Positions 5,827-56,087 of a stretch of 64,000 nucleotides of DNA are shown here, piece after piece. Positions within the stretch are counted from its first letter, which is position 1, and every line of letters begins with the position of its first letter. Location of the stretch: assembly GCA_951406725.2 (NCBI GenBank), contig OX597819.1, positions 80,786,001 to 80,850,000 of the forward strand. The letters are read 5' to 3'. This stretch comes from Octopus vulgaris. Lineage: Eukaryota. The notes beneath the pieces are model-generated. The model ran no database searches. It saw only the letters and a program-made list of their open reading frames with translations, and was not told where the DNA came from. The translations under genes were made by a program, and so were the position numbers.

Positions 5827-6254
5827 GTAAGTTCACAGGCTTTTCTAACATTGACTTTTTCTTTCTAGGTGCAGGCATGGCTTTGTGGTTAAGAAGCTAT
5901 CTTTACATTCATAGGGTTTCAGGTTCAGTCCCACTGCTTGCCACCTTTGGCAAGTGTCTTGTACTATAGCCCTGAGCTGACCAATGCTTTGTGAGTAGAT
6001 TTGGTAAGCAAAAACCCATGTCTATATATATGTATATAGATAGATAGATAGATAGATAGTTAGAAAAAAAAAGATTAAAAAATCCAGGTAGATATCAATA
6101 AAGCACTCAGTTTTAAAAGAATTTGGTTAACAATATCCAACAATCAGACACTAGTAAATGTAAGTAGAATACACATCCAAGGTAAATCCTCATGTATGAC
6201 AAGCAGATCTAAACATCATTTTGAAGAATTTCAAGAAATTCAGAGTATTTGATA

Positions 6255-6562
6255 ACAAAAAAATGTGTATAGATAAAATCACATCTTTAATTGTAGAATT
6301 CCCGTTCCAAAGCTGATTCTTTTTTTATATTGTATTAACATATTTAGACATAGAAGATATAATTAAAATTAGTATTTCCAAAAATATGTGTTAACACATT
6401 TCCAAGGTGATCCAAAATTTGTGTTAACATATATTTTTCGAAATATTAATTTCAAGAGTATTTTCTATATTCATATATGTTAATGCAATAGAAACAATTG
6501 TTGGCTTTATAAGGTGAATTTCTGCAATTAAGGTATGATTTTCTTTCTGTATTTTTTTGTTT
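6255..6562. repeat. degenerate fold-back palindrome, about 145-bp arms
   Basis: aaaaatatgtgttaacacattt mirrors aaatttgtgttaacatatattttt around 6408; outer arms still complementary. Confidence 0.65.
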
Positions 6563-15728: not shown

Positions 15729-15993
15729 AATTGCAGCGTGGAAGGTGTTTGTAAGCCATTTAAGAAACACAAAAGCCGTTCGATTCACTTCCACATTTAA
15801 GTTTAATTTGTCAAAATATTTTCGTCGCTTTAAGACCGCGACCTGTTCACTGACAAAAATCCATGCCATTGAACAGGTCGTGGTCTTAAAGCGACGAAAA
15901 TATTTTGACAAATTAAACTTAAATGTTGAAGTGAATGGAACGGCTTTTGTGTGTTTCTTAAATGGCTTACAAACACCTTCCACACTGCAATTG
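15729..15993. mobile_element. fold-back element (inferred inverted Penelope-type pLTR pair) with a hammerhead motif in each arm
   Basis: About 122-bp arms that are near-perfect reverse complements around a spacer of about 20 nt. Confidence 0.8.
15807..15857 (-). ncRNA. minimal type I hammerhead ribozyme motif, G3-C8 variant
   Basis: UUUGUCA-GUGAACA-G-GUCGC(ggucuuaaa)GCGAC-GAAA-AUAU-UU-UGACAAA: 7-bp stem I, 5-bp stem II, palindromic stem III. Confidence 0.7.
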
Positions 15994-16077
15994 TTTTCGT
16001 TTCAGCACATGATCTCAGATCAAATCACTTGCTATGCAAGTACATCTCCGTATTTATAATTGTTATCTATTTATCAG

Positions 16078-19504: not shown

Positions 19505-19547
<43 letters not shown>

Positions 19548-19815
19548 TATATAATTAGGCTTCAGTAAAATAATTTACTTTACCACACACCAAACTTTTA
19601 GAAATAGCAGCCAAAAAATCTTAGCTATTTCTTATACTATAAGAAAAATCTCCCAGACAATGCATACTCAAAAATAATTCACACAGTTATAGAGGGAAAA
19701 ATAACGAAAGATCACATGTACATAAGATCTTATGTACGTGTGATCTTTTGGCTGCTATTTCTAAAAGTTTGGTGTGTGGTAAAGTAAATTATTTTACTGA
19801 ACCCTAATTATATAA
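19548..19815. repeat. asymmetric fold-back element
   Basis: About 70-bp inverted repeats (19548-19617 vs 19746-19815) plus a 42-bp internal palindrome at 19707-19748. Confidence 0.75.
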
Positions 19816-22415: not shown

Positions 22416-23748
22416 TAGCTGAAGGTGACCCGCTCTACGCGCGGGTAAGAGTGTGGGTGTTACTTTCTGTTGCTTCCTTTCAGCACGTAAAAAGCACCAT
22501 CCGAACGTGGCCGATTGCAGCACCGCCTTGACTTGCTTCTGTGCTGGTGGCACGTAAAAAGCACCAACCGATCGTTGCCACTGCGAGCTCCCCTGGCACC
22601 AGTGCCGTCGGCACGAAAAAAGCACTCACTACACTCACAGTGTGGTTGGCGTTAGAAAGGTCATCCACCTGTAGAAACACTGCCAGATCAGACTGGAGCC
22701 TGGTGCAGCCTCCTGGCTTCCGAGACCCGGTCACACTGCCCAACCCGTATTTGTTTCTCTCCGTATTTGTTTCTCTCTCCTTTCTCTCTCACTTTCCCAC
22801 TCTCTTACTTTTCTTTTCTCTCTGACTCTCCCTCGCTTTCTCTTACTCTCTATCTTTATCTATCTCTCTCCCATTTATAAACAACAGAAGATCTTGAGTA
22901 AGTTGAGAAATAAAATATTTAGAAAGATCAATCAGAAATATGAGGCAGTGGCAATGGAAAGGTCTGCTTCAAGGCAGACAGCAAAACGCTAACATTGAAA
23001 AGGGACAGACGAACTTGCGAGCTGAATAAAAATAATAAAATATTGGAAACCAAAGTTTGAAGGGATAGAATCTGAGGATAGTAGAGTCACCATGGCTGGC
23101 ATTTGTTAACGACGGACAGCAACGTAGTGACAGTTTAACGGCTGGCGTAAAATTTTGAACTTGATGTAAAAGAAAATTCGTAAACACCAATTTTTGAAGT
23201 GATTCTTTCTCACGACAGTAGACTCACCATGGCAAGCATTCAAAACTTCTTTATCATGGACAGCAACACATTGACGATTAAAAGGCTGGCGCAAATTTTT
23301 TAGCTTGATGCAACAGAGAATTCCTAAACACCCGCTCTTTGAAATTTTAATCCCCTTCCAGCCCCATTTAGACCCCTTTTCACATTTTGGTTAATATAAC
23401 CCGATTTAATTCGGGTGTACTGGGGCCACATTTTATAAGATGAGGAATTTTGTCCTAGAGGTGACGCCTTTCATTTGAGGAACAAAATAGTTGTGATGCA
23501 AACTTGTCAGCACCTTTAATATAGGTGTGCATATTTTCAGGTGAATCGACCGACTACGTAATGCACACATATATATATGTGTATATATATATATGTGTGT
23601 GTGTGCACGCATTATATATACAAATGTATACAAATGAGATATATATCTGTATAAATTAAATTAGAGATAAAACCACTAATAGGCAAATCAAACAGTGAAA
23701 AACCAAAAACAAAAACATAAAAAAAGAAAATATAACATAGAAAATATA

Positions 23749-24660
23749 TCTATATATATAAAACTGTAGTTGTGTGAGTGTCTGTCACCCTCGATTTAGA
23801 TTCCTAACTACTCCCAAATTTTGCGGTGCAGTTTAACCAAATTCGGGTATCTTATAGTCGTGATTCATATCGAGCCCGTCTGGGTATTAGCGCGCGTCTA
23901 CGATGAGTGTACGATTTTAAAAATAATTTAACATCATTTTTTATTCCATTTTAATGCATATTTTTTCGTGTGTCGATGGCGGCGGAGTTGGCGTCCACGC
24001 TCACGCCTGCACCTGTGTTGCTTCTCCCCCTTCTTCCCTCCCTCGTGAAGCTGTGGGGAAGGGAGTGTAAGGAAATCAACGTCGTAATGCGTTGTGAAGG
24101 AGACCAGCGTTCTTTTAGAACAACGACTTCATGGCTTGAAGTCGCCAAAACAGAAATCGCTAAAAAAGCTGAAACAGATCCACAAAATGGCAAAAACCGC
24201 CACAGGGCAGGTTTCCTGTGCAAACAATTTGCACAACCGAATGTTTTAGTTGTTGCACAAATCTTTATATATAAAAGTAAGGTTGTGTGTCTGTCTGCTA
24301 CGATTTAGATTCCTAACTACTCCCACATTTTGCGGTGCAGTGTAACCAAAACCGGGTATCTTATAGTCGTGATTCATATCGATCCCTTCTGGGTATTAAC
24401 GCGCGTCTACGATGAGTCTACGATTCTTAAAAAAATTTACCATCATTTTTTATTCCATTTTAATGCATTTTTCGCTATTATATAAGGGAAGTAACTCTCT
24501 AAAAATGTCTACGATGAGTCAACGATTAAAAAAAAAATTACCATCATTTTTTTATTCCATTTTAATGCATTTTTTGCTATTTTTTTTGCTATAACTCACT
24601 AAAAATGCTTATATAGTTATTTCCCTTACAAACCCGAGCAACGCCGGGCGATACTGCTAG
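23749..24660 (+). mobile_element. nested composite Helitron (two 5' ends, one 3' end)
   Basis: A|TCTATATATATAAAACTG at 23749; second TCTTTATATATAAAAG at 24262; hairpin CCCGagcaacgcCGGG then CTAG|T at 24660. Confidence 0.8.
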
Positions 24661-24850
24661 TAAAATATAAAATTGAAAACTTTAAATTATTTAAATTGAA
24701 AATAAAAATTATGAAATTATATTTATAATTTGTTTAAAAATATATATAACTATGAAAAAGTATGAAAAAGTTTAACATACATAAATACAGATATATACAC
24801 TTTGTATATTTACATTATATATACATATTTATATATAGAACACACACACA

Positions 24851-24961
24851 TCATCATCATCATTGTTCGACCGTGGTCGAGACAATGGAATTTACCATGT
24901 TGCGCCAGACTTCACGGTCCATCATAGCATTACGGAGGTCCTGTTGCTGGATGCCTGTATC
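24851..24961 (-). mobile_element. short 3' end of a second RTE-like LINE, present only in Helitron copy 1
   Basis: Minus strand DTGIQQQDLRNAMMDREVWRNMVNSIVSTTVEQ* followed by a (TGA)n tail. Confidence 0.7.
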
Positions 24962-25610
24962 CACACACACATACATTATATATACATATTTATATATAGA
25001 ACACACACACACACACACACATACATTATATATACATATTTATATATAGAACACACACACACACATACATTATATATACATATTTATATATAGAACACAC
25101 ACACACACATACATTATATATACATATTTATATATAGAACACACACACACATACATTATATATACATATATATATAGAACACACACACACACACACATAT
25201 AAATGAACGCAAGAATATCTGATTCATAATATTTGTTCTCATGCTCGTGTGTTGATTGTTGGTGACAGACATATACTTCAAAGAACGCCGCCGAAGTGAT
25301 AGGAAGGTAGGAAACAGAGTCAGTGAAAAAGAAAGGAAATAGCGATAGTGACAGATACTTTAAATAACCGTAGTGGCATTCTGAAAGTTATAAATGAAGA
25401 GGAGTGACAGAGTACTGGAGGAAATAGGGTGAGGTAGGAAGATGGCCCCTAGAAACCACAGCTTTTAAGATAGGGATTTCTAAGGTAGCCCACGCGCATC
25501 GTCACCTCATTCTACATGTCCGTGTAAATTTTGGAGCGAATCGGACGGGATGTAGTGGCATTGAAAGCGAACCAAGCGGTAAAAAGGCATTTCAGTTTTA
25601 TATATAGAGA

Positions 25611-28600
25611 CTAGCTGAAGGTGACCCGCTCTACGCGCGGGTAAGAGTGTGGGTGTTACTTTCTGTTGCTTCCTTTCAGCACGTAAAAAGCACCATCCGA
25701 ACGTGGCCGATTGCAGCACCGCCTTGACTTGCTTCTGTGCTGGTGGCACGTAAAAAGCACCAACCGATCGTTGCCACTGCGAGCTCCCCTGGCACCAGTG
25801 CCGTCGGCACGAAAAAAGCACTCACTACACTCACAGTGTGGTTGGCGTTAGAAAGGTCATCCACCTGTAGAAACACTGCCAGATCAGATGGAGCCTGGTG
25901 CAGCCTCCTGGCTTCCGAGACCCGGTCACACTGCCCAACCCGTGCTAGCACGGAAAACGGACGTTAAACGATGATGATGATGATGATTCTCCGTATTTGT
26001 TTCTCTCTCAGTTTCCCACTCTCTTACTTTTCTTTTCTCTCTGACTCTCCCTCACTTTCTCTTACTCTCTATCTTTATCTATCTCTCTCCCATTTATAAA
26101 CAACAGAAGATCTTGAGTAAGTTGAGAAATAAAATATTTAGAAAGATCAATCAGAAATATGAGGCAGTGGCAATGGAAAGGTCTGCTTCAAGGCAGACAG
26201 CAAAACGCTAACATTGAAAAGGGACAGACGAACTTGCGAGCTGAATAAAAATAATAAAATATTGGAAACCAAAGTTTGAAGGGATAGAATCTGAGGATAG
26301 TAGAGTCACCATGGCTGGCATTTGTTAACGACGGACAGCAACGTAGTGACAGTTTAACGGCTGGCGTAAAATTTTCAACTTGATGTAAAAGAAAATTCGT
26401 AAACACCAATTTTTGAAGTGATTCTTTCTCACGACAGTAGACTCACCATGGCAAGCATTCAAAACTTCTTTATCATGGACGGCAACACATTGACGATTAA
26501 AAGGCTGGCGCAAATTTTTTAGCTTGATGCAACAGAGAATTCCTAAACACCCGCTCTTTGAAATTTTAATCCCCTTCCAGCCCCATTTAGACCCCTTTTC
26601 ACATTTTGGTTAATATAACCCGATTTAATTCGGGTGTACTGGGGCCACATTTTATAAGATGAGGAATTTTGTCCTAGAGGTGACGCCTTTCATTTGAGGA
26701 ACAAAATAGTTGTGATGCAAACTTGTCAGCACCTTTAACATAGGTGTGCATATTTTCAGGTGAATCGACAGACTACGTAATGCACACATTATATATATAT
26801 ATATGTGTGTATATATATATATGTGTGTGTGTGTGTGTGCACGCATTATATATACAAATGTATACAAATGAGATATATATCTGTATAAATTAAATTAGAG
26901 ATAAAACCACTAATAGGCAAATCAAACAGTGAAAAACCAAAAACAAAAACATAAAAAAGAAAATATAACATAGAAAATATATCTATATATATAAAACTGA
27001 AGTTGTGTGAGTGTCTGTCCCCTTCGATTTAGATTCCTAACTACTCCCAAATTTTGCGGTGCAGTTTAACCAAATTCGGGTATCTTATAGTCGTGATTCA
27101 TATCGAGCCCGTCTGGGTATTAGCTCGCGTCTACGATGAGTGTACGATTTTAAAAATAATTTAACATCATTTTTTATTCCATTTTAATGCATATTTTTTC
27201 GTGTGTCGATGGCGGCGGAGTTGGCGTCCACGCTCACGCCTGCACCTGTGTTGCTTCTCCCCCTTCTTCCCTCCCTCGTGAAGCTGTGGGGAAGGGAGTG
27301 TAAGGAAATCAACGTCGTAATGCGTTGTGACGGAGACCAGCGTTCTTTTAGAACAACGACTTCATGGCTTGAAGTCGCCAAAACAGAAATCGCTAAAAAA
27401 GCTGAAACAGATCCACAAAAACGGCAAAAACCGCCACACAGGGCAGGTTTCCTGTGCAAACAATTTGCACAACCGAATGTTTTAGTTGTTGCACAAATCT
27501 TTATATATAAAAGTAAGGTTGTGTGTCTGTCTGCTACGATTTAGATTCCTAACTACTCCCACATTTTGCGGTGCAGTGTAACCAAAACCGGGTATCTTAT
27601 AGTCGTGATTCATATCGATCCCTTCTGGGTATTAACGCGCGTCTACGATGAGTCTACGATTCTTAAAAAAATTTACCATCATTTTTTATTCCATTTTAAT
27701 GCATTTTTCGCTATTATATAAGGGAAGTAACTCTCTAAAAATGTCTACGATGAGTCAACGATTAAAAAAAAAATTACCATCATTTTTTTATTCCATTTTA
27801 ATGCATTTTTTCGCTATTATATAAGGGAAGTAACTCTCAAAAAATGTCTACGATGAGTCAACGATTTAAAAAAGAAATTACTATAATTTTTTATTCCATC
27901 TTTAATGCATTTTTTGCTATTTTTTTTTGCTATAACTCACTAAAAATGCTTATATAGTTATTTCCCTTACAAACCCGAGCAACGCCGGGCGATACTGGTA
28001 GTAAAATATAAAATTGAAAACTTTAAATTATTTAAATTGAAAATAAAAATTATGAAATTATATTTATAATTTGTTTAAAAATATATATAACTATGAAAAA
28101 GTATGAAAAAGTTTAATATACATAAATACAGATATATACACTTTGTATATATACATTATATATACATATTTATATATAGAACACACACACACACACACAT
28201 ACATTATATATACATATTTATATATAGAACACACACACACACATACATTATATATACATATTTATATATAGAACACACACACACATACATTATATATACA
28301 TATTTATATATAGAACACACACACACATACATTATATATACATATATATATAGAACACACACACACACACATATAAATGAACGCAAGAATATCTGATTCA
28401 TAATATTTGTTCTCATGCTCGTGTGTTGATTGTTGGTGACAGACATATACTTCAAAGAACGTCGCCGAAGTGATAGGAAGGTAGGAAACAGAGTCAGTGA
28501 AAAAGAAAGGAAATAGCGATAGTGACATATACTTTAAATAACCGTAGTGGCATTCTGAAAGTTATAAATGAAGAGGAGTGACAGAGTACTGGAGGAAATA

Positions 28601-34982: not shown

Positions 34983-35341
34983 ATTGTTGAAATTAAGAGT
35001 GACTCACACAAGATCTTCAATTTGCTTATGGAAAACGACTACCTGGCCAGATTCCAAAAGTGGCAGGAACACTAGGACAGGTGTATTACTGCGCAGGATG
35101 ACTATTTCAAAGGAGATGATGTTAAAACTTCAGTACTCTTTTACACTTTTACTTGTTTCAGTCATTTGACTGTGCCTATGCTGGAGCACTGCCTTTAGTC
35201 AAGCAAATCGACCCCAGGACTTGTTCTTTGTAAGCCTAGTAATTATTCTATCGGTATCTTTTGCCGAACCTCTAAGTTATGGGATGTAAACACACCAGCA
35301 TTGGTTGTCAAGCGATGTTGGGGGGACAAACACATATATAC

Positions 35342-35386
<45 letters not shown>

Positions 35387-35613
35387 CGCACACACATATA
35401 TACGATAGGCTTCTTTCAGTTTCCATCTACCAAATCCACTCACAAGGCTTTGCTCGGCCCGAGGCTATAGTAGAAGACACTTGCCCAAGGTGAAATGCAG
35501 GGGGACTGAACCTGGAACCATGTGGTTCATAAGCAAGCTACTTACCACACAACCACTCCTAAGTTATTTTTTATGAAACCTAACTAGTTCAGGAACTTCT
35601 TGATGCCACCACA
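34983..35613 (+). mobile_element. mariner 3' fragment (same family as 8793-9586) split by a minus-strand SINE at about 35136-35560
   Basis: RFQKWQEH*DRCITAQDDYFKGD; TIR aactagttcaggaacttcttgatgccaccaca|ta resumes after the SINE. Confidence 0.7.
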
Positions 35614-35718
35614 TATTATTGTTCCTCACTGGACGGGACACTGGTCAGTCGCAGGGTTACTCATTTTTGCCAGCTGAGTGAACTGGAGCAATGTGAAATG
35701 AAGTGTTTTGCTCTAGAA

Positions 35719-36023
35719 CAGTAGTTCCCAAAGTGGACGGTATTGTTCTCCTGGGGGCAGTGGAATTATCCAGGGGGCATTCAAGAAAAGTGGGATGATA
35801 ACAGGGTGGCCAAAATGGGGTGATAGATGTAAAAAAAATATTAATAAATATCTAGGCACAGGAGTGGCTGTGTGGTAAGTAGCTTGCTTACCAACCACAT
35901 GGTTCTGGGTTCATTCCCACTGTGTGGCACCTTGGGCAAGTGTCTTCTACTATAGCCTCAGGCCGACCAAAGCCTTGTGAGTGGATTTGGTAGACGGAAA
36001 CTGAAAGAAGCCCATCGTATATA

Positions 36024-36090
<67 letters not shown>

Positions 36091-36428
36091 TTGTGTGTCT
36101 GTGTTTGCCCCCCATCCCGGCCAATATTGCTTGACAACCGATGGTGGTGTGTTCGGCAAAAGAGATCAAGAAAATAAGTACTAGGCTTACAAAGAATAAG
36201 TCCTGGGGTCGATTTGCTCAACTAAAGGTGGTGCTCCAGCATGGCTGCGATCAAATGACTGAAACAAGTAAAAGAGTAAAAGCAGTTAATTAGGTTTAAG
36301 TTTTATTTGTGAAATACAGTTGTGTTGAATTTGCTGCAGAAAGTGGTCTATATTTGTGGTGGGAAGGTTGCTAGGAATGTGGCCTGGGTATCAAGGGGCT
36401 GGCAGCCTAAGAAGTTTGGGAACCACTG
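35719..36428. mobile_element. hAT (Charlie-like) MITE containing a SINE and itself inside a SINE
   Basis: 8-bp TSD CTCTAGAA on both sides; TIR CAGTAGTTCCCAAA...TTTGGGAACCACTG. Confidence 0.88.
35855..36282 (+). mobile_element. tRNA-derived SINE family A (internal TA/TG microsatellite, CR1-type tail); many other copies in window
   Basis: A-box gtggctgtgtggt, B-box-like gggttcattccc; tail ggtggtgctccagcatggc...aaatgactgaaacaagtaaaagag. Confidence 0.85.
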
Positions 36429-36676: not shown

Positions 36677-37074
36677 GTAAACCTTTTCTTTATCAGCTGA
36701 ATTTTAATTGGTGATTGTATTCATACTGGTACATTTGTTATTAATTACTTTGAAGTGTTATCGGAGTGTCATAGCATATGTTGTGAAGATATATCCAGCT
36801 AATGACAGCTTGAGGAAAATTACATCAAACTGATTCTGATTATGATATTTATGTTAGTAATGATGTTGATGATGATGAGAAATATTCATGCAACTATTGA
36901 AAAAAAAAAGTCTTTAAGGTGCAGGTGTGGCTGTGTTGTAAGAAGTCTGCTTCCCAACTGCATGGTATTGGTTTCAGTCCCACTGTGTGGCACCTTGGAC
37001 AAGTGTCTTCTACTATAGCCACAGGCCGACTAAAGTCTTGTGAGTGGATTTGGTAGAGAGAAACTTAAGAAGCT

Positions 37075-37129
<55 letters not shown>

Positions 37130-37843
37130 GCATGGGCATGGCTGTATTGTAAGAAGGTTGCTTCCTTCTTACTATAAGGCAGCGAGCTAGCAGAAATGTG
37201 AGCACGCCAGGTCAAATGCTTAGCAGTATTTCGTCTACTGCTACGTCCTGAGTTCAAATTCTGCCGAGGTCGACTTTATGTTTCATCCTTTCGGGGGCGA
37301 TTAAATAAGTACCAGTTACACACTGGGGTCGATATAATCGACTTAATCCATCTATCTGTCCTTGTTTGTCCCCTCTGTGTATAGCCCCTTGTGGGCAGTA
37401 AATAAATAAGAAGGTTGCTTCCCAACCACAGGGTTCTGGGTTCAGTCCCATTGCCTGGCACCTCAGGCAAGTGTCTTCTACTATAGCCTCAGACTGACAA
37501 AGCTTTCTGAGTGGATTTTGATTGATGGAAGCTGAAATAAGCCTCTTGTAGAGATATGTGTGTGCTTTTGTGTCTATGTTTGTCCCCTACCACTGCCTGA
37601 CAACTTGTATTGGTGTGTTTATGTCCCTATAACTTAGCAGTTTGGTGATAGAGACTGATAGAATAAGCACCAGGCTTAAGAAACAAAAATATGTACTGGG
37701 TTGATTTGTTCAACTAAAATTCTTCAAGGTTCTGTCCCAGCATAGCCACAGTCTAATGACTGAAGCAGGGCTGCTAAGCTGTAAGGAAGTAAACGTACCA
37801 ACACTGGTTGTCAAGTGATGGTTGGGGGCAAACACACAAGAGA

Positions 37844-37877
<34 letters not shown>

Positions 37878-39008
37878 ATATTTTTTTTTTTTTCTTTTAC
37901 TTGTTTCAGTCATTTGACTGCAGCCATGCTGGAGCACTGCCCTTAGTCGAACAAGTTGACCCCAGGACTTATTCTTTGTAAGCCTAGTACTTATTCTATT
38001 GGTCACTTTTGTCGAACTGCTGAGTTACAGGGACATAAACACACCAACATCAGTTGTCAAGCGATGGTGGGGGGACAGACATACAGACACACGCACACAT
38101 ATCTCTACAAGAGACTTCTTTCAGTTTCCATCTACCAAATCCACTCACAAGGCTTTGCTCGGCCTGGGGCTACCATAGAAGACACTTACTCAAAGTGCCA
38201 TGCAGTGGGACTGAACCCAGAAACATGTGGTTCATAAGCAAGTTACATGCCACACAGCCATGCCTGTGCTATATATATATAATAGGCTTCTTTCTGTCTA
38301 CTAAATCCACTCACAAGACTTTGGTCAGCCTGAGGCTATAGTAGAAGACCCTTGCCCAAGATACCACACCATGGAACTGAACCTGAAACCGTGTGGTTGT
38401 GGAGCAAACTTCATACTACACAGCCAAACCTGCACCACAAAAGGTAGGTTTTTCATAAACTTGAGGGTGAAGATAATGTTAACCTTTCTTGGACTCCAGA
38501 CCATTACACTGTGTTTTTGCTATCAAAGAGCTGGAGATAGTTACAAAATACTTATTGAATAACAGACAGCAACAATTACATTCTTAATTAACGGATTGCA
38601 ACTGGAAATGCTGATTATGTCACACTTTTGTAGACAATATTACATGTGATCAGCAGCTGTTCAAAAATGTCAACAATGTATGACCTCCCATTGTGGTTTG
38701 ATGTTATTTGCAAAACATATACAATAGTATCAATAAGTAAAAAAAATTTTTTCTAATAAACATTGACAATACCTCTGTTATGAATGCATGCTATAAACAT
38801 TAGAAATATTTTTTGAACATACTCATCAAAACTTCTGCTTAGTGCAAAAATAACAGGCTAGATATAGCTGATAGGGATATAAAAGGATAATCATTGTACA
38901 CTCATAGAGATGGACTGCCCTAAATCAGTGCAAAGAATATTTATGGACAACTACTTTGAAACTTTCAGTTTCTCTACCCTGTTTATGAATTTAGATTTAT
39001 ACAAATAA

Positions 39009-39767: not shown

Positions 39768-40660
39768 GTAAGTCTTCATATATTGTAAGTCTTCTATGCA
39801 CTAAAAGTCTGCATCCTCTGTTTTATTAATGTTTTATATTGGGTATAAAAGACCAATTTGAAATGAGTAACAACATTCCCAGCAGACCTGATATTTCCAT
39901 GCAGCTTTTTGAACTGAGAAATGTAGAGTAAAGTGCCCTGTCAGCGATAGTAACTCACCTGTAACAGATGTGAACTTGTGATCCATATCATGGTAGTTCA
40001 ATCATTGTTTAACATCTGCCTTCCATAGTGGGATGGTTTGACAGGAGCTGGCTGGGCAGAAACCTGCACCAGACTTCTGTGACTGTTTTGGCTGGATTTT
40101 TACAACTGGATGCCCTTCCTAACACCAACCACTCAGCAGAGTGGACTTTGTGCTTTTTATGTCGCACAAGCACAGGCACAGTCAGTTTTGGCAAGGTTTT
40201 TACAGCAGGATGCCTTTCCAAATGCCAATCACTTTACAGTGGGGACTTGATACTTTTTAAGTGGCACCTGCACTGGCAGGGTCACCAAGTACCTTGCAAG
40301 ACAAAAAAAAAAATTATCTTTTGAGTGGATGGGGGTGGGGGAATTAGAGGAGGTGATCTCGTGTCAAATGAAGTTTATAGTGAGACAGAGAGACAGAAAC
40401 GGGTGTCTTGCTGTAGAAGTGGTACAAGTTTACCTGGCTGGTGAGAAAGAGAGAGAGATCAGGAATGAAGTACTTGTTGTGTTGCCCAAGTAGTTCAGTG
40501 AGTTATTGTCATAAGGTCCTTGTAAAATTAAGTTAGTTACAGCGTATGATGATGTGTTCAATATTAGTGAGAATATTGCTGGAAGTGAGTTAAAGTAATA
40601 TGCAAATTAGCTAGTTTGAAATTTTCTATAAGTGATCAGAGCAGTAACTATACTGAGAAG

Positions 40661-41154
40661 TAATGTTTATCACCTCTTAAACATGGCTGTTCTGGAGGAA
40701 CCGACATTACTGCTATTTTTAACCACAGGAGGACGCCCACTCCAGCTGATAATTCGATGCAATCTGTATCTGATATATTTTGAAAGCAGGAGAGTGAACT
40801 CCTTACCATCTTCCAGCAATGGCAGGACCACCAGACTGTACAGTTTTGACCTTTTTGTGGTCAACCTCAGTGGTAGATATTTACCCAGTAGAGATAGCAG
40901 CAGTTCTGGAGTGAACCACTGCTGTCTCTAGTGGGCAAGTATCCACCACTGAGGATGACCACAAAGAGCTTGAAACTATATAGTTTGGTGATGTTGTGGC
41001 TAGAAGATTGTTGTGGGTCCACTCCCCTGCTTGCAGTATATATCGAGTGAGATCGCATCAAATAACCAGGTGGAGGAGATGTCCTCCTGGGGTTGAAAAT
41101 AGCAGTAATGTTGGTTCCTACAGAGCAGTCATGTTTAACTGGTGATAAACATTA
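40661..41154. mobile_element. 494-bp fold-back element (inferred inverted pLTR pair) with a hammerhead relic in each arm
   Basis: taatgtttatcacc...ggtgataaacatta; arms complementary throughout with many substitutions; centre near 40908. Confidence 0.85.
40944..40990 (+). ncRNA. hammerhead ribozyme motif (C3-G8), stem II decayed
   Basis: CACCA-CUGAGGA-U-GACC(acaaaga)GCUU-GAAA-CUAUAUAG-UU-UGGUG; mirror copy at 40829-40875 (-) keeps GACC/GGUC, CUGUACAG and UC. Confidence 0.7.
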
Positions 41155-41232
41155 ATTCTGTGTTAAAGTAGTTTTGTAAGAATTTCACCCTCTTAAATAT
41201 CTTTAAATTTGATTTAACATTTTCATTTCCAG

Positions 41233-41404
41233 AAGTCATTGTGCTTGCACTTACGGACACAAAAACCCAGCAATAGAAGCATTTTTCCAGAAATCTTTTG
41301 AACAAAGTCTTGCTTTTTCTCCTCAAGCAAGTAATATGATCTTTATAATGGAAACGCTGGCTCGGAACCATTTAAGAGATGATAAAGAACTTGTATTGGT
41401 CTGA
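41233..41404 (+). CDS. HPS4: HPS4 last coding exon with stop codon
   Basis: catttccag| phase 2. (G)SHCACTYGHKNPAIEAFFQKSFEQSLAFSPQASNMIFIMETLARNHLRDDKELVLV*, TGA at 41402-41404; matches the HPS4 C-terminus [20 protein letters not shown]...AKQKLLKHGVNLL. Confidence 0.9.
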
Positions 41405-42544: not shown

Positions 42545-44760
42545 TATGAGCTGGCAGAATTGTTAGCATGTCAGGCAAACTGCTCAGTAGTATTTCATTT
42601 ATCTTTATGTTCTGAGTTCAAATTCTGCAAAGTTGACTTTGCCTTTCAGTCTTTCAGGGGTCAATAAAATACCAGTTCAATACTGGGACCGATGTAATTG
42701 ACTTACCCCTTTCCCCAAAATTGCTGGCCTTGTACCAAAATTTGAATTTAACATTAAACAAATATAAGGCTTGCAGATTGGCAGAATCATGCTGGGCAAA
42801 AGACTTAGCAGCATTTCATTCCTCTTTATGTTCTGAGTTCAAATTCTGTAAGATTGACTTTGCTTTTCATTCTTTCAGGGTTGATAAAATATGTACCAGT
42901 TGAGTATTGGGGTTGATGTAATCAATTTTCACCCTTCCCTGAAATTGCTGGCCTTGTGCTCAAATTTGAAACTAATATTAAACAAATATAAGGCAGTGAA
43001 ATGGCAGATTCATTAACACACTGAGCAAATACTTAGCAGCATTTCATCCATCTTTTACATCAGTGGAATCGACTAGCCCTCTTCTCCAAAATTGCTGCCC
43101 TTGTGGCAAAATTTGAAACCATTATTATTATTATTATTTTATGTTTGACTTTTGCTTTATATTTGTACAAGTTGGCTCCAAGTCTCACCCAGAGACCTCA
43201 AGAGACAACAAGTTGGAAGATCATGTTGGTGTTATGCCTAGGGTGCCATATATTTGGTTTTGTACTTAGTGTTGTAAAAGTGAATGTTTAAGAAAGCATA
43301 AGAAAATTATGTTTGTTTTAAAACTTGAGATTACATAGTATTTTGCATAGGATATGAGCAGTTCCCATGAGCACTATCTTTTGAATTTCTGCCATTTTTG
43401 GGTTTCCTGGTATCTGAGCTAGGTTGCAATCAGCCGCTTTTGCTATCATTCCTAGGACACCTATGACAACAAATATTGTTTTAGTCTTCAGGTTCCGCAT
43501 TTTGCTAATTTCTATTTCAAGATCTTTATATTTGTTTAGTTTTTGGTGGGTCTTGACAGATATGTTTATGTCGATTGGGACAGTCATATCAATAAGGAGG
43601 AATGATTTTTGTTTATGAATTATTATTATTATTATTGCAGTATTTCACCTGTCACTACATTATTATTATTGCGGTATTTCACCTGTCACTATGTTCTGAG
43701 TTCAGATTCCACCAAGGTTGACTTTGCCTTTCGGGGTCGATAAATACCAGTTAAACACTGGGGTTAATGTAATCAACTACTCCCATCCCCCAAAATGTTA
43801 AGCTTTGTGCTTTAGTAGAAAGGATTATTATTTTTGAAGGCAGTGAGCTGGCTGGACAAAATGCTTAGCAGCATTTTGCTTGTTGCTACTTTCTGAGCTC
43901 AAATTCTGCTGAGGTTGACTTTGCCATTCATTCTTCAAGGGTCGATAAATTAAGTACCTGTGAAACATGGGGTCAATGTAATCAACTTGTCCCCTCCTCA
44001 AAAATTTCAAGACCTTGTGCCTTCAGTAGAAAGGATTATTACTATTATGGTATTTCACCCATTGCTACGTTCTGAGTTAAGATTCTGCTGAGGTTGACTT
44101 TGCCTTCCATACTTTTGGGGTTGATAAATTAAAAACCAGTTAAACGCTGGGGACAATGTAATTGACTAGTCCTATCCCCTCAAAATGGTTGCCCTTGTAG
44201 CAAAATTTGAAATCATTATTATTATTCTAGCACAATGGGAAAAATGCTTAGTGGCATTTCATGTGTCTTTATGTTCAGAGTACTAGGGTCGATGTAATTG
44301 ACTTACCCTCTCTCCTGGTTGCTGGCCTAATATCAAAATTTGAAAACCAGTATTAAACAAATATTCTTTTCTACTCTAGGCACAAAGCCTGAAATTTTGG
44401 GGGAGGTGGTGGGGACAGTCGATTAGATTGACTGCTGTGCGCAACTAGTACTTAATTTATTGATCCCGAAACAATGAAAAGCAAAGTCGACCTCATCAGA
44501 ATTTGAACTCAGAACTTAACGACAGATGAAATACCTATTTCTTTACTACCTACAAGGGGCTAAACACAGAAGGGACAAACGGATTGAGTCAATTATATCG
44601 ACTCCAGTGCGTAACTGGTACTTATTTAATCGACCCCGAAAGGATGAAAGGCAAAGTCGACCTCGGCGGAATTTGAACTCAGAACGTAACGGCAGAGGAA
44701 ATATTGCTAAGCATTTCGCCCGGCGTGCTAACGATTCTGCCAGCTCGCTGCCTTAATATT
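42545..44760. mobile_element. dense cluster of roughly ten tRNA-derived SINE family B copies in both orientations
   Basis: Repeated gttctgagttcaaattc...gactttgcctttcatcc...ggggtcgataaa core. Confidence 0.85.
43139..43613 (-). mobile_element. Dong/R4-clade non-LTR retrotransposon 3' end (restriction-like endonuclease) in a (TAA)n tract
   Basis: LIDMTVPIDINISVKTHQKLNKYKDLEIEISKM...VVIGVLG...IQKIVLMGTAHIL; flanked by (ATT)n on both sides, the known Dong target. Confidence 0.85.
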
Positions 44761-54071: not shown

Positions 54072-54715
54072 GGATCTTTACCTTTTGACATACAGATTTA
54101 AAAAAATATTTTTTTGTAACTAAGCACTTTCAAACTTCGGACACTGGTAGAATGTTTTACTCTTAGCATTTTTGAGAAAAACTTATATTTACGAAGTAAT
54201 TTCACGTTAAAGTAGGCCTATTTCGGTAATTTCAACCAATCAATGACGTGTATTCAGCTGAATAAAATTACTTCCGTTGTTTGTCAACAACAAATATCGG
54301 CAGTGTATTTTTCGTTTGTCACTGTTATTTATGACATTGTTTGTGCGTTTATACTGGTTTTAGCTTTAAGGTTTTAGGGTTAGGGTTTCAGGGTTAGGGT
54401 TTTAGGGTTAGAGCTTTAGGGTTAGGGTTAAGGTGTTAGGGTTAGGGTTGTCATAAATAACAGTGACAAACGAAAAATACACCACCGGAAGTTCTTGTTG
54501 ACAAACAACGGCAGTAATTTTATTCAGCTGGATACACGTCACTGATTGGTTGAAATTACCGAAATATGCCTTTAACGTGAAATTACTTCGTAAATATAAG
54601 TTTTTCTCAAAAATGATAAGAATAAAACATGTTTTATATGACACATTCTACCAGTGTCCGAAGTTTGAAAGTGTTTAGTTACAAAAAATTATTTTTTGAA
54701 TCTGTAGGTCAAAAG
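54072..54715. mobile_element. long-TIR MITE with central TTAGGG repeats
   Basis: About 260-bp inverted arms starting GGATCTTTACCTTTTGAC; degenerate (TTAGGG)n at about 54360-54450; right terminus lacks its last ~10 bp. Confidence 0.85.
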
Positions 54716-55480
54716 AGGAAATAGAACCGCTGAGTGTGTTAGATATTAAGGCAGTATGATATATACAATATAACTTTCATATTTTATGCTTTAGATTTAA
54801 AGCATTTTAGTAACGATTCAAAATTTTTAACCATCATATATTCTGGTACCGTCCACAGTGGAAATGAAATCATGCGAGAGTTATTTCATTCTAAAAAATA
54901 CATACAAATGAACATTAATAACATGGCAAATTCAAAAATGTCCAGCAACGGATAAGAAATTTGAATTCATTATTGCCAATGACAAATCTTATTAGTGTAT
55001 CATATAAAAAAAAAATCTTAACAATAACTATGGTAGTTGCAGAATGTCTCGTCGGTTGGCTAGAGTACATGAAATCATACCTTCGGTCCGAAAAAGGCGA
55101 CGTTAGAATGTTATATTGTCTGCACGACATTGAAAGATAATCGGCTAATGTGGTGAATCTAAGTGGTAGATAACTTAGCGGGAATAATGCAAGATGAAAA
55201 CGGTAGTTCCGTATTGCATCTTTGTAAACTGTAAAATAATTACATAGCACACTTTTAAATATAATAAACATTCTGGAATAAAAAAATTGAATAAATTTAA
55301 AATTATATATTGCTTGTCTGGGGACTTTTTGTGCTAGCTCACCCAACTTTAGAACCTAGGTACACTTGTGCTTCCAGCCTCGGTGAGCATCTTCCACAAA
55401 CGAGAAACGTTTGGTGGTGCTATTAAGTTAGACATGGCCTGGGCCAATACTGGCCAAAACCTTTCTAAGTTATTCTAAGT

Positions 55481-55517
<37 letters not shown>

Positions 55518-55527
55518 ATTTATATAT

Positions 55528-56087
55528 AAACTTAGATAAACTTAGATGTGTTTCGACCAATGATTGGTCCAGGCCATGTCTAACTTAATAGCACCACCTG
55601 ATAGGATTATTTGAATCCTGTTTAAGTCAAGTTTTGCTTATGGTCCATTCAAGTAGTGAGTTTTGTTGGGTGAGTTGTATCCAATTATGGGTGGCTTATC
55701 TGGTATTCTTTGAAGGAATCTATCCAGACTCCGTTTAAAGTTGATGGGATCCTGTTCCTCTTTGATCTCTTTCGGGACAATGTTAAATAGGGCAGGGCCT
55801 GTTGAGGAAAAGAAATTATGTTGTAGTGTATAAGTATGCTGTGATCTTGAATTGGGCAGGGGACGTATGGCCCGTGGTCCCAGTCTTGGATGAACCTTGA
55901 AGCTTATGTTCAGGTCGTTTGGGCAAAGTTGGCGGTATATTCTCCACATCGTACAAATGATGTACCGCTCACGGCGACGCTGGAGAGAGTAGAGTTTCAA
56001 GGCTTTAAGGCGATCCCAATATTCGAGAGCAGCCATGCCTCCAATTCGTTTAGTGAGTGCTCTCTGGGGTGATTCAATCCTCGAGAT

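Follow-up and report, generated by a model that had tools for sequence, protein, structure and literature searches.

The window, a 64,000-nucleotide stretch of the Octopus vulgaris genome (contig OX597819.1, positions 80,786,001 to 80,850,000), has eight exons of P0002, a protein of 717 aa, mapped along it; P0002 matches Intu_longin_1 (first longin domain) and PDB 8zwc_B, HPS4. The last coding exon (41233-41404, plus strand; stop codon at 41402-41404, with the contigs continuing beyond) encodes a peptide 80% identical to the C-terminus of P0002; searched by itself, this exon peptide was without match in Pfam or PDB. The label of HPS4-like gene, assigned by homology, holds on these sequence grounds. 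The preceding intron (39768-41232, GT..AG) was normally spliced in four of four contig runs, a joint that rests on assembled contigs (none of the runs is on record as RNA, and their kind, 'RNA?', was guessed). The end of this intron (41160-41232, plus strand) comprises branch-like sites at 41209-41218, which are candidates from a simple motif match, a pyrimidine tract and the AG. At 40050-40300 the same intron contains a very abundant repeat, on which contigs from many loci pile up with many differences that should not be taken for editing.

A long fold-back before the last coding exon of an HPS4-like gene

Upstream of the last exon, positions 40641-41174 were predicted to fold as a single rod (−308 kcal/mol; z −22.25; 0 of 100 shuffles equally stable), and 192 of 251 aligned columns (~78%) were identical between the two arms, with a longest run in the duplex of 16 bp for Watson-Crick pairs only and 29 bp counting G-U. 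The 494-bp fold-back proposed at 40661-41154 in the initial annotation was confirmed by both folding and arm alignment, as was its end 78 nt before the last exon (41154 to 41233). That extent is correct for the palindrome but not for the whole element, which continues for ~60 nt on the left, to ~40601.

The insertion spans ~40601-41159 and consists of the palindrome plus a tail on one side only. The left arm (40661-40906, minus strand), which is antisense to the HPS4-like transcript, is a 5′-truncated part of a ~355-nt monomer of the subfamily termed A below. Its one-sided 3′ tail of ~60 nt (40601-40660, minus strand) lies outside the palindrome and can be aligned to the 3′ ends seen in other copies, the long end at 40601 being ~226 nt past the cleavage site. 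The right arm (40906-41159, plus strand), which is sense in the pre-mRNA, is an inverted 5′-truncated copy and ends at the short 3′ end of the family. The two meet in a head-to-head (5′-to-5′) junction at 40900-40912, read against the family alignment (3-nt gap between blast segments), where they start a few bases apart in monomer coordinates and join at ~C40906. A putative target-site duplication was read by eye at 40587-40599 (left copy) and 41160-41172 (right copy; both plus strand), 11 of 13 letters being the same; the scripted target-duplication score here was 7 (a 7-mer core only) versus 4 in four shifted controls, and a 13-bp duplication flanking 40601-41159 is suggestive only.

Further fold-backs were located in the window at 85-363, 6254-6561, 19547-19815, 35138-36282, 36922-38415, 43673-44732, 54082-54715 and 55413-55598, several of them in TA or CA repeats, and a local duplication with a period of ~3.2 kb occupies 23699-28456 (300-nt blocks 93-96% identical; families D7, D8 and D19). 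The element at 15729-16060 belongs to a younger, unrelated family whose usual unit is a palindrome plus a ~60-nt tail (best 40 of 3913 candidates, 90-95% identical). Its hammerhead-like motif has a core in which G3-C8 is swapped, the sequence being GUGAACA in 27 of the 30 matches to the motif.

The repeat family and its hammerhead motif

With one arm as genome query, 49 matches were obtained in the best 40 scored of 706 candidates (2.8-Gb genome); two further queries returned 2226 and 1865 candidates, which are not copy numbers (the first query contained a TA repeat). Family loci were taken as the best-scoring matches (50 plus 27, making 77 loci), with window loci and duplicates excluded. The family is a dispersed repeat of ~355 nt, the monomer period in tandem loci being ~350-358 nt. 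By a loose rule, the 50 loci were classed as 10 tandem, 19 solo and 21 inverted, and most copies of the family are shorter than two monomers and often inverted. Non-CpG divergence among copies is ~5-16%, with near star-like relationships. No Pfam match was found in 17 stop-free stretches of element copies (14 from other loci and 3 from the window).

A hammerhead fold extends across the copies. In 49 of them, 85.9% of the cells in hammerhead helices were paired, versus 11-47% in slid controls, a comparison in which the structure is favoured because it was derived from the same sequences. The helix covariation score was equalled by 1 of 500 shuffles, yet relatedness can beat such shuffles and the changes in stem III are mostly CpG decay. 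The clearest sign of a ribozyme comes from stem II, in which one pair is exchanged between two subfamilies: A has GACC/GGUC and B has GAGC/GCUC. At the family level a type I hammerhead is predicted, with three helices, the CUGANGA, GAAA and UH boxes and an open helix I; tandem loci such as L019, among the best-scoring loci, carry two decayed motifs. When single motifs were folded, the first letters of the core could also pair to helix III on its 3′ side, giving an alternative inactive fold.

Each arm of the palindrome carries a damaged type I hammerhead, as the initial annotation had claimed, and both relics point outward from the palindrome centre. The left relic (40828-40876, minus strand) has A9 changed to U and G12 to A and retains a palindromic stem III. 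The right relic (40943-40991, plus strand) has intact core boxes and C17 changed to U, with a stem II that is weakened by one mismatch and one wobble (3′ strand GCUU). Thus an intact hammerhead is absent from either arm, the left being without A9 and G12 and the right having a damaged stem II. The canonical motif previously put together from the two arms agrees with the majority sequence of the family; the exceptions are the stem II loop, two CpG-decayed letters of stem III and possibly position 4. At the gathering threshold Rfam gave no match in the 64-kb window; the left arm has a weak HH9 match (19.9 bits, E 0.041) under the gathering score. MicroRNA matches at the hairpin centre were rejected, being far under their cut-offs and a product of the long stem. 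Of the two arms, only the right one has the hammerhead sense in the pre-mRNA. By predicted folding it adopts no hammerhead fold, either alone or within the hairpin, where its stem I has a pairing probability of 0.0 and the relic is fully paired with the left arm; locked in this long duplex, the right arm would not cut.

The subfamilies differ at core position 4. Among CpG-intact copies, subfamily A has CG in 15, TG in 6 and CA in 3 of 27, and subfamily B has TG in 13 and CG in 1 of 16 (P value=0.0003; Fisher test). Exact genome-wide patterns gave 6 CCG, 4 CTG and 1 CAG among 11, and 9 CCG, 5 CTG and 2 others among 16 in a second set. Subfamily B has the canonical core, and the window copy at 40601-41159 belongs to A, with its mostly CCGA (U4C) core. 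Since the copy belongs to A, the canonical CUGAGGA found in both of its arms may be a product of deamination, for which the odds are about even (0.45-0.52, under rough assumptions). Some subfamily A templates may themselves have had CUGA, as TG is above background in A (P value=0.026). A CCGA ancestor for the whole family was dropped, subfamily B being CUGA.

Position 4 has a precedent in a viroid, in which a natural U4C hammerhead variant is said to have lower activity in vitro yet to allow infectivity (as cited in Perreault et al. 2011, PMC3088659). The core change is identical; U4C there is a viroid variant, but in octopus it is carried by most copies of a transposon subfamily. This was the only report of U4C found in the literature covered. 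Tentatively, and at somewhat less than even odds, subfamily A may have spread with CCGA (U4C) while its sister kept CUGA, which would mean either that the U4C dimer cuts adequately or that cutting is dispensable for mobilisation; methylation of host gene bodies would then revert intronic CCGA to CUGA, so that decay would also rebuild the core.

Decay of the two arms and the question of a host function

Most CpG sites of the family are lost from the window copy, with 3 of 14 intact in the left arm and 1 of 14 in the right (24 of 28 lost), and the chance that a given CpG is lost in both arms is ~0.73. The ribozymes had been proposed to be disabled by methylation-driven decay, as seen from a CpG at the junction of stem II and GAAA that is mutated in both arms on opposite strands. 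CpG decay is indeed heavy in the decayed hammerheads, but it is not specific to the ribozyme: CpG loss is element-wide, and the double loss at this junction is therefore expected and of no special meaning. Relative to the element the two hits fall on opposite strands, yet each is a C-to-T change on the plus strand of the window (40847 and 40971). The ratio of observed to expected CpG is 0.43 over the HPS4-like gene versus 0.75-0.81 downstream; moreover, CpG retention is bimodal across the 50 loci, which are of similar non-CpG age (17 loci at or below 0.22 and 33 at or above 0.43). In octopus, gene-body methylation is reported, with transposons as such being lightly methylated (PMC9476566). The bimodal retention and the low ratio in the gene fit such gene-body methylation.

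Beyond CpG sites, the arms have decayed independently. Identity between them is 0.78, compared with a mean of 0.806 over 465 pairs of unrelated copies, all within one genome. Of the 31 other copies, 29 resemble the left arm more than the right arm does, and 18 resemble the right arm more than the left arm does. Non-CpG divergence amounts to 22 of 216 positions in the left arm and 22 of 215 in the right, with one derived change in common. On the transcribed strand, 16 changes form G-U pairs versus 14 that give A-C mismatches (P value=0.86). A contrary hint comes from 13 head-to-head pairs, in which arm identity averaged 0.815 versus 0.800 across copies (P value=0.097). The hairpin shows no sign of maintenance, and the persistence of a dsRNA that had been suggested for this locus was not borne out.

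These comparisons bear on a role for the hairpin in the host, by which the duplex would be retained next to the 3′ splice site for ADAR recruitment or for fine control of how the last HPS4 exon is spliced. In its favour, the duplex has considerable length and stability, and two fold-backs in this gene end close to acceptors, at 78 nt here and at 85 nt in the 15.7-kb element. The latter figure agrees with the ~80 nt stated earlier for that element, but it applies to its hairpin, which ends at 15992 (AG ending at 16077); the element itself continues to ~16052-16060, ~17-25 nt before that acceptor. Two fold-backs within 100-150 nt of acceptors represent a nominal 1-2% event, computed post hoc with 8 fold-backs and 8 acceptors assumed. 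Against such a role, neither excess arm identity nor a G-U bias is seen, the two strands of the hairpin fold about equally (plus −299 versus minus −292 kcal/mol), and the branch-like sites are at least 50 nt outside it. Furthermore, acceptor-like sites lie near 5 of the 28 head-to-head loci, compared with 19 of the 140 control windows (P value=0.37); for the 15.7-kb family the count is 1 of 19 loci. The positional enrichment expected of such palindromes was thus not seen in this crude scan, a home-made motif rule that flags 5 of 8 true acceptor ranges and ~13% of control windows and excludes strong enrichment only. Nor are head-to-head copies enriched among the loci with CpG decay, which are presumably genic (5 of 19 versus 12 of 31; P value=0.54).

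The four contig runs gave no A-to-G difference within the exon; one was listed at 41131, from a lone contig (depth 2.25) and together with two other types of change. As contigs drop rare variants, these counts are no evidence on editing either way. Repeats are reported to be the main ADAR targets in animals, in favour of recruitment, but editing density is also reported to drop with repeat age (10.1101/2020.01.19.911685), which argues against it in an old copy; by analogy, incidental editing of the leftover duplex is plausible. A selected function in splicing or editing is, on balance, quite improbable, and the palindrome is likely a by-product of insertion, a passenger rather than a regulatory device.

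Insertion mechanism and implications

The head-to-head layout of the locus is frequent in its family. With a gap of at most 35 nt, it was found in 28 of the 77 other loci (19 of 50 plus 9 of 27). The 3′ ends of copies cluster at 160-179 nt (25 of 88) and 210-239 nt (45 of 88) past the cleavage site, and 13 of 20 head-to-head loci resolve to one long plus one shorter 3′ end, the other 7 being unresolved. A target-duplication score of at least 9 was reached by 4 of 20 head-to-head loci versus 1 of 80 controls, two of those four being microsatellites. L064 has a perfect 14-mer duplication, and old copies are mostly low-scoring.

This layout is that of Penelope-like insertions, which carry an inverted 5′-truncated copy at their 5′ terminus and are tailed on one side only. 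As described for endonuclease-bearing Penelope-like elements (Craig et al. 2021, PMC8557442; Arkhipova et al. 2013, PMC3846280), the resemblance covers the head-to-head truncated copy, the one-sided tail and, putatively, the short target duplication in some copies. The octopus family differs from them in its tail, ~55-60 nt versus their 30-40 bp, and in being without an ORF for reverse transcriptase (RT) plus GIY-YIG between pseudo-LTRs, which is absent at the locus and within 1.5 kb of the 77 loci. A mobilising enzyme of the Penelope type is inferred from architecture alone, as no autonomous partner was found within that distance of the 77 loci. A reverse-transcriptase fragment (RVT_1, E 4e-19; L012:48-602) was observed ~900 nt from one family copy, with no apparent link to it.

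Hammerheads of Penelope-like elements (Cervera and de la Pena 2014, PMC4209133) share with the octopus motif an extra base after position 9, a G10.1-C11.1 pair and a palindromic helix III; their core variant as described is U3-A8, that of octopus subfamily A is U4C, and the octopus helices I (6 bp) and II (4 bp) are, unlike theirs, canonical-sized. In schistosomes, elements are described that carry opposite-strand hammerhead pairs 100-700 bp apart (PMC4209133). The family also resembles metazoan non-LTR retrozymes (Cervera and de la Pena 2020, PMC7229834; 10.64898/2026.07.22.740005) in its non-coding monomer of a few hundred nucleotides with a type I hammerhead and in the partial tandems and solo copies, many of them intronic; in mussel, retrozymes are reported as tandem type I hammerhead repeats of 350-390 bp (PMC7229834). 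Unlike the retrozymes described there, the octopus family is old, mostly shorter than two monomers, often inverted and mostly U4C in subfamily A, and its ribozyme is predicted only. A 2026 preprint (Li, Clavereau and Pollet; 10.64898/2026.07.22.740005) argues that animal retrozymes are non-autonomous Penelope derivatives.

The palindrome is thus very probably a single old insertion, in head-to-head form, of a ~355-nt hammerhead repeat that is dispersed and non-coding; the insertion was likely pasted by a Penelope enzyme and has likely decayed neutrally since. RNA of the family would have been reverse-transcribed in trans by a Penelope-like element, and the 5′-truncated inverted second copy would have been made during the same event, so that the arms would at first have been identical or almost identical. 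Methylation of the host gene body in the germline would then have removed most CpGs, both in and out of the ribozyme. In the pre-mRNA, the right arm alone would present the ribozyme sense, locked in the predicted duplex and non-cutting, and the duplex that remains may undergo incidental editing that serves no selected role.

Two other origins were weighed against this one. The palindrome might be a pseudo-LTR stub of an autonomous Penelope-like element rather than a member of a free-standing, non-autonomous retrozyme family. Truncated Penelope insertions are described as leaving an equal inverted stub with a tail (PMC8557442; PMC3846280), and retrozymes resemble pseudo-LTRs according to the preprint cited above (10.64898/2026.07.22.740005). 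However, upstream of the monomer the copies enter a preceding monomer and not coding sequence, the monomer is without Pfam match, and the 1.5 kb around the 77 distinct loci contained no linked long ORF, these loci being best-scoring matches such that rare full-length elements could escape; a stub is on these grounds unlikely, at roughly one chance in five. Much less probable still is that the arms are of separate origin, arising by two independent insertions or by a later local inverted duplication through DNA repair. The single derived non-CpG change that they share, and an identity no higher than that of unrelated copies, would be compatible with this, and by themselves cannot show a single event; but a near star-like family yields equally low sharing under a single event, and a late duplication would give many changes common to both arms. 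Moreover, the arms abut within a few bases and finish at the paired long and short ends of the family, in a geometry matched at those 28 of 77 other loci.

For the insertion of one head-to-head copy, the layout is already known from Penelope-type retrotransposons; the new detail lies in the two subfamilies with a CUGA and a mostly CCGA (U4C) core. The locus is otherwise ordinary, and it illustrates how long inverted repeats are introduced into introns by Penelope-type insertion with no selection for them. A regulatory function, if true, would tie such parasites to the control of splicing or editing in a heavily RNA-editing lineage, a view that the sequence evidence opposes. Copies of the same age with bimodal CpG loss may preserve a fossil record of how each insertion site was methylated in the germline, and the CUGA/CCGA sister pair offers a natural means to ask whether the spread of retrozymes needs cleavage.
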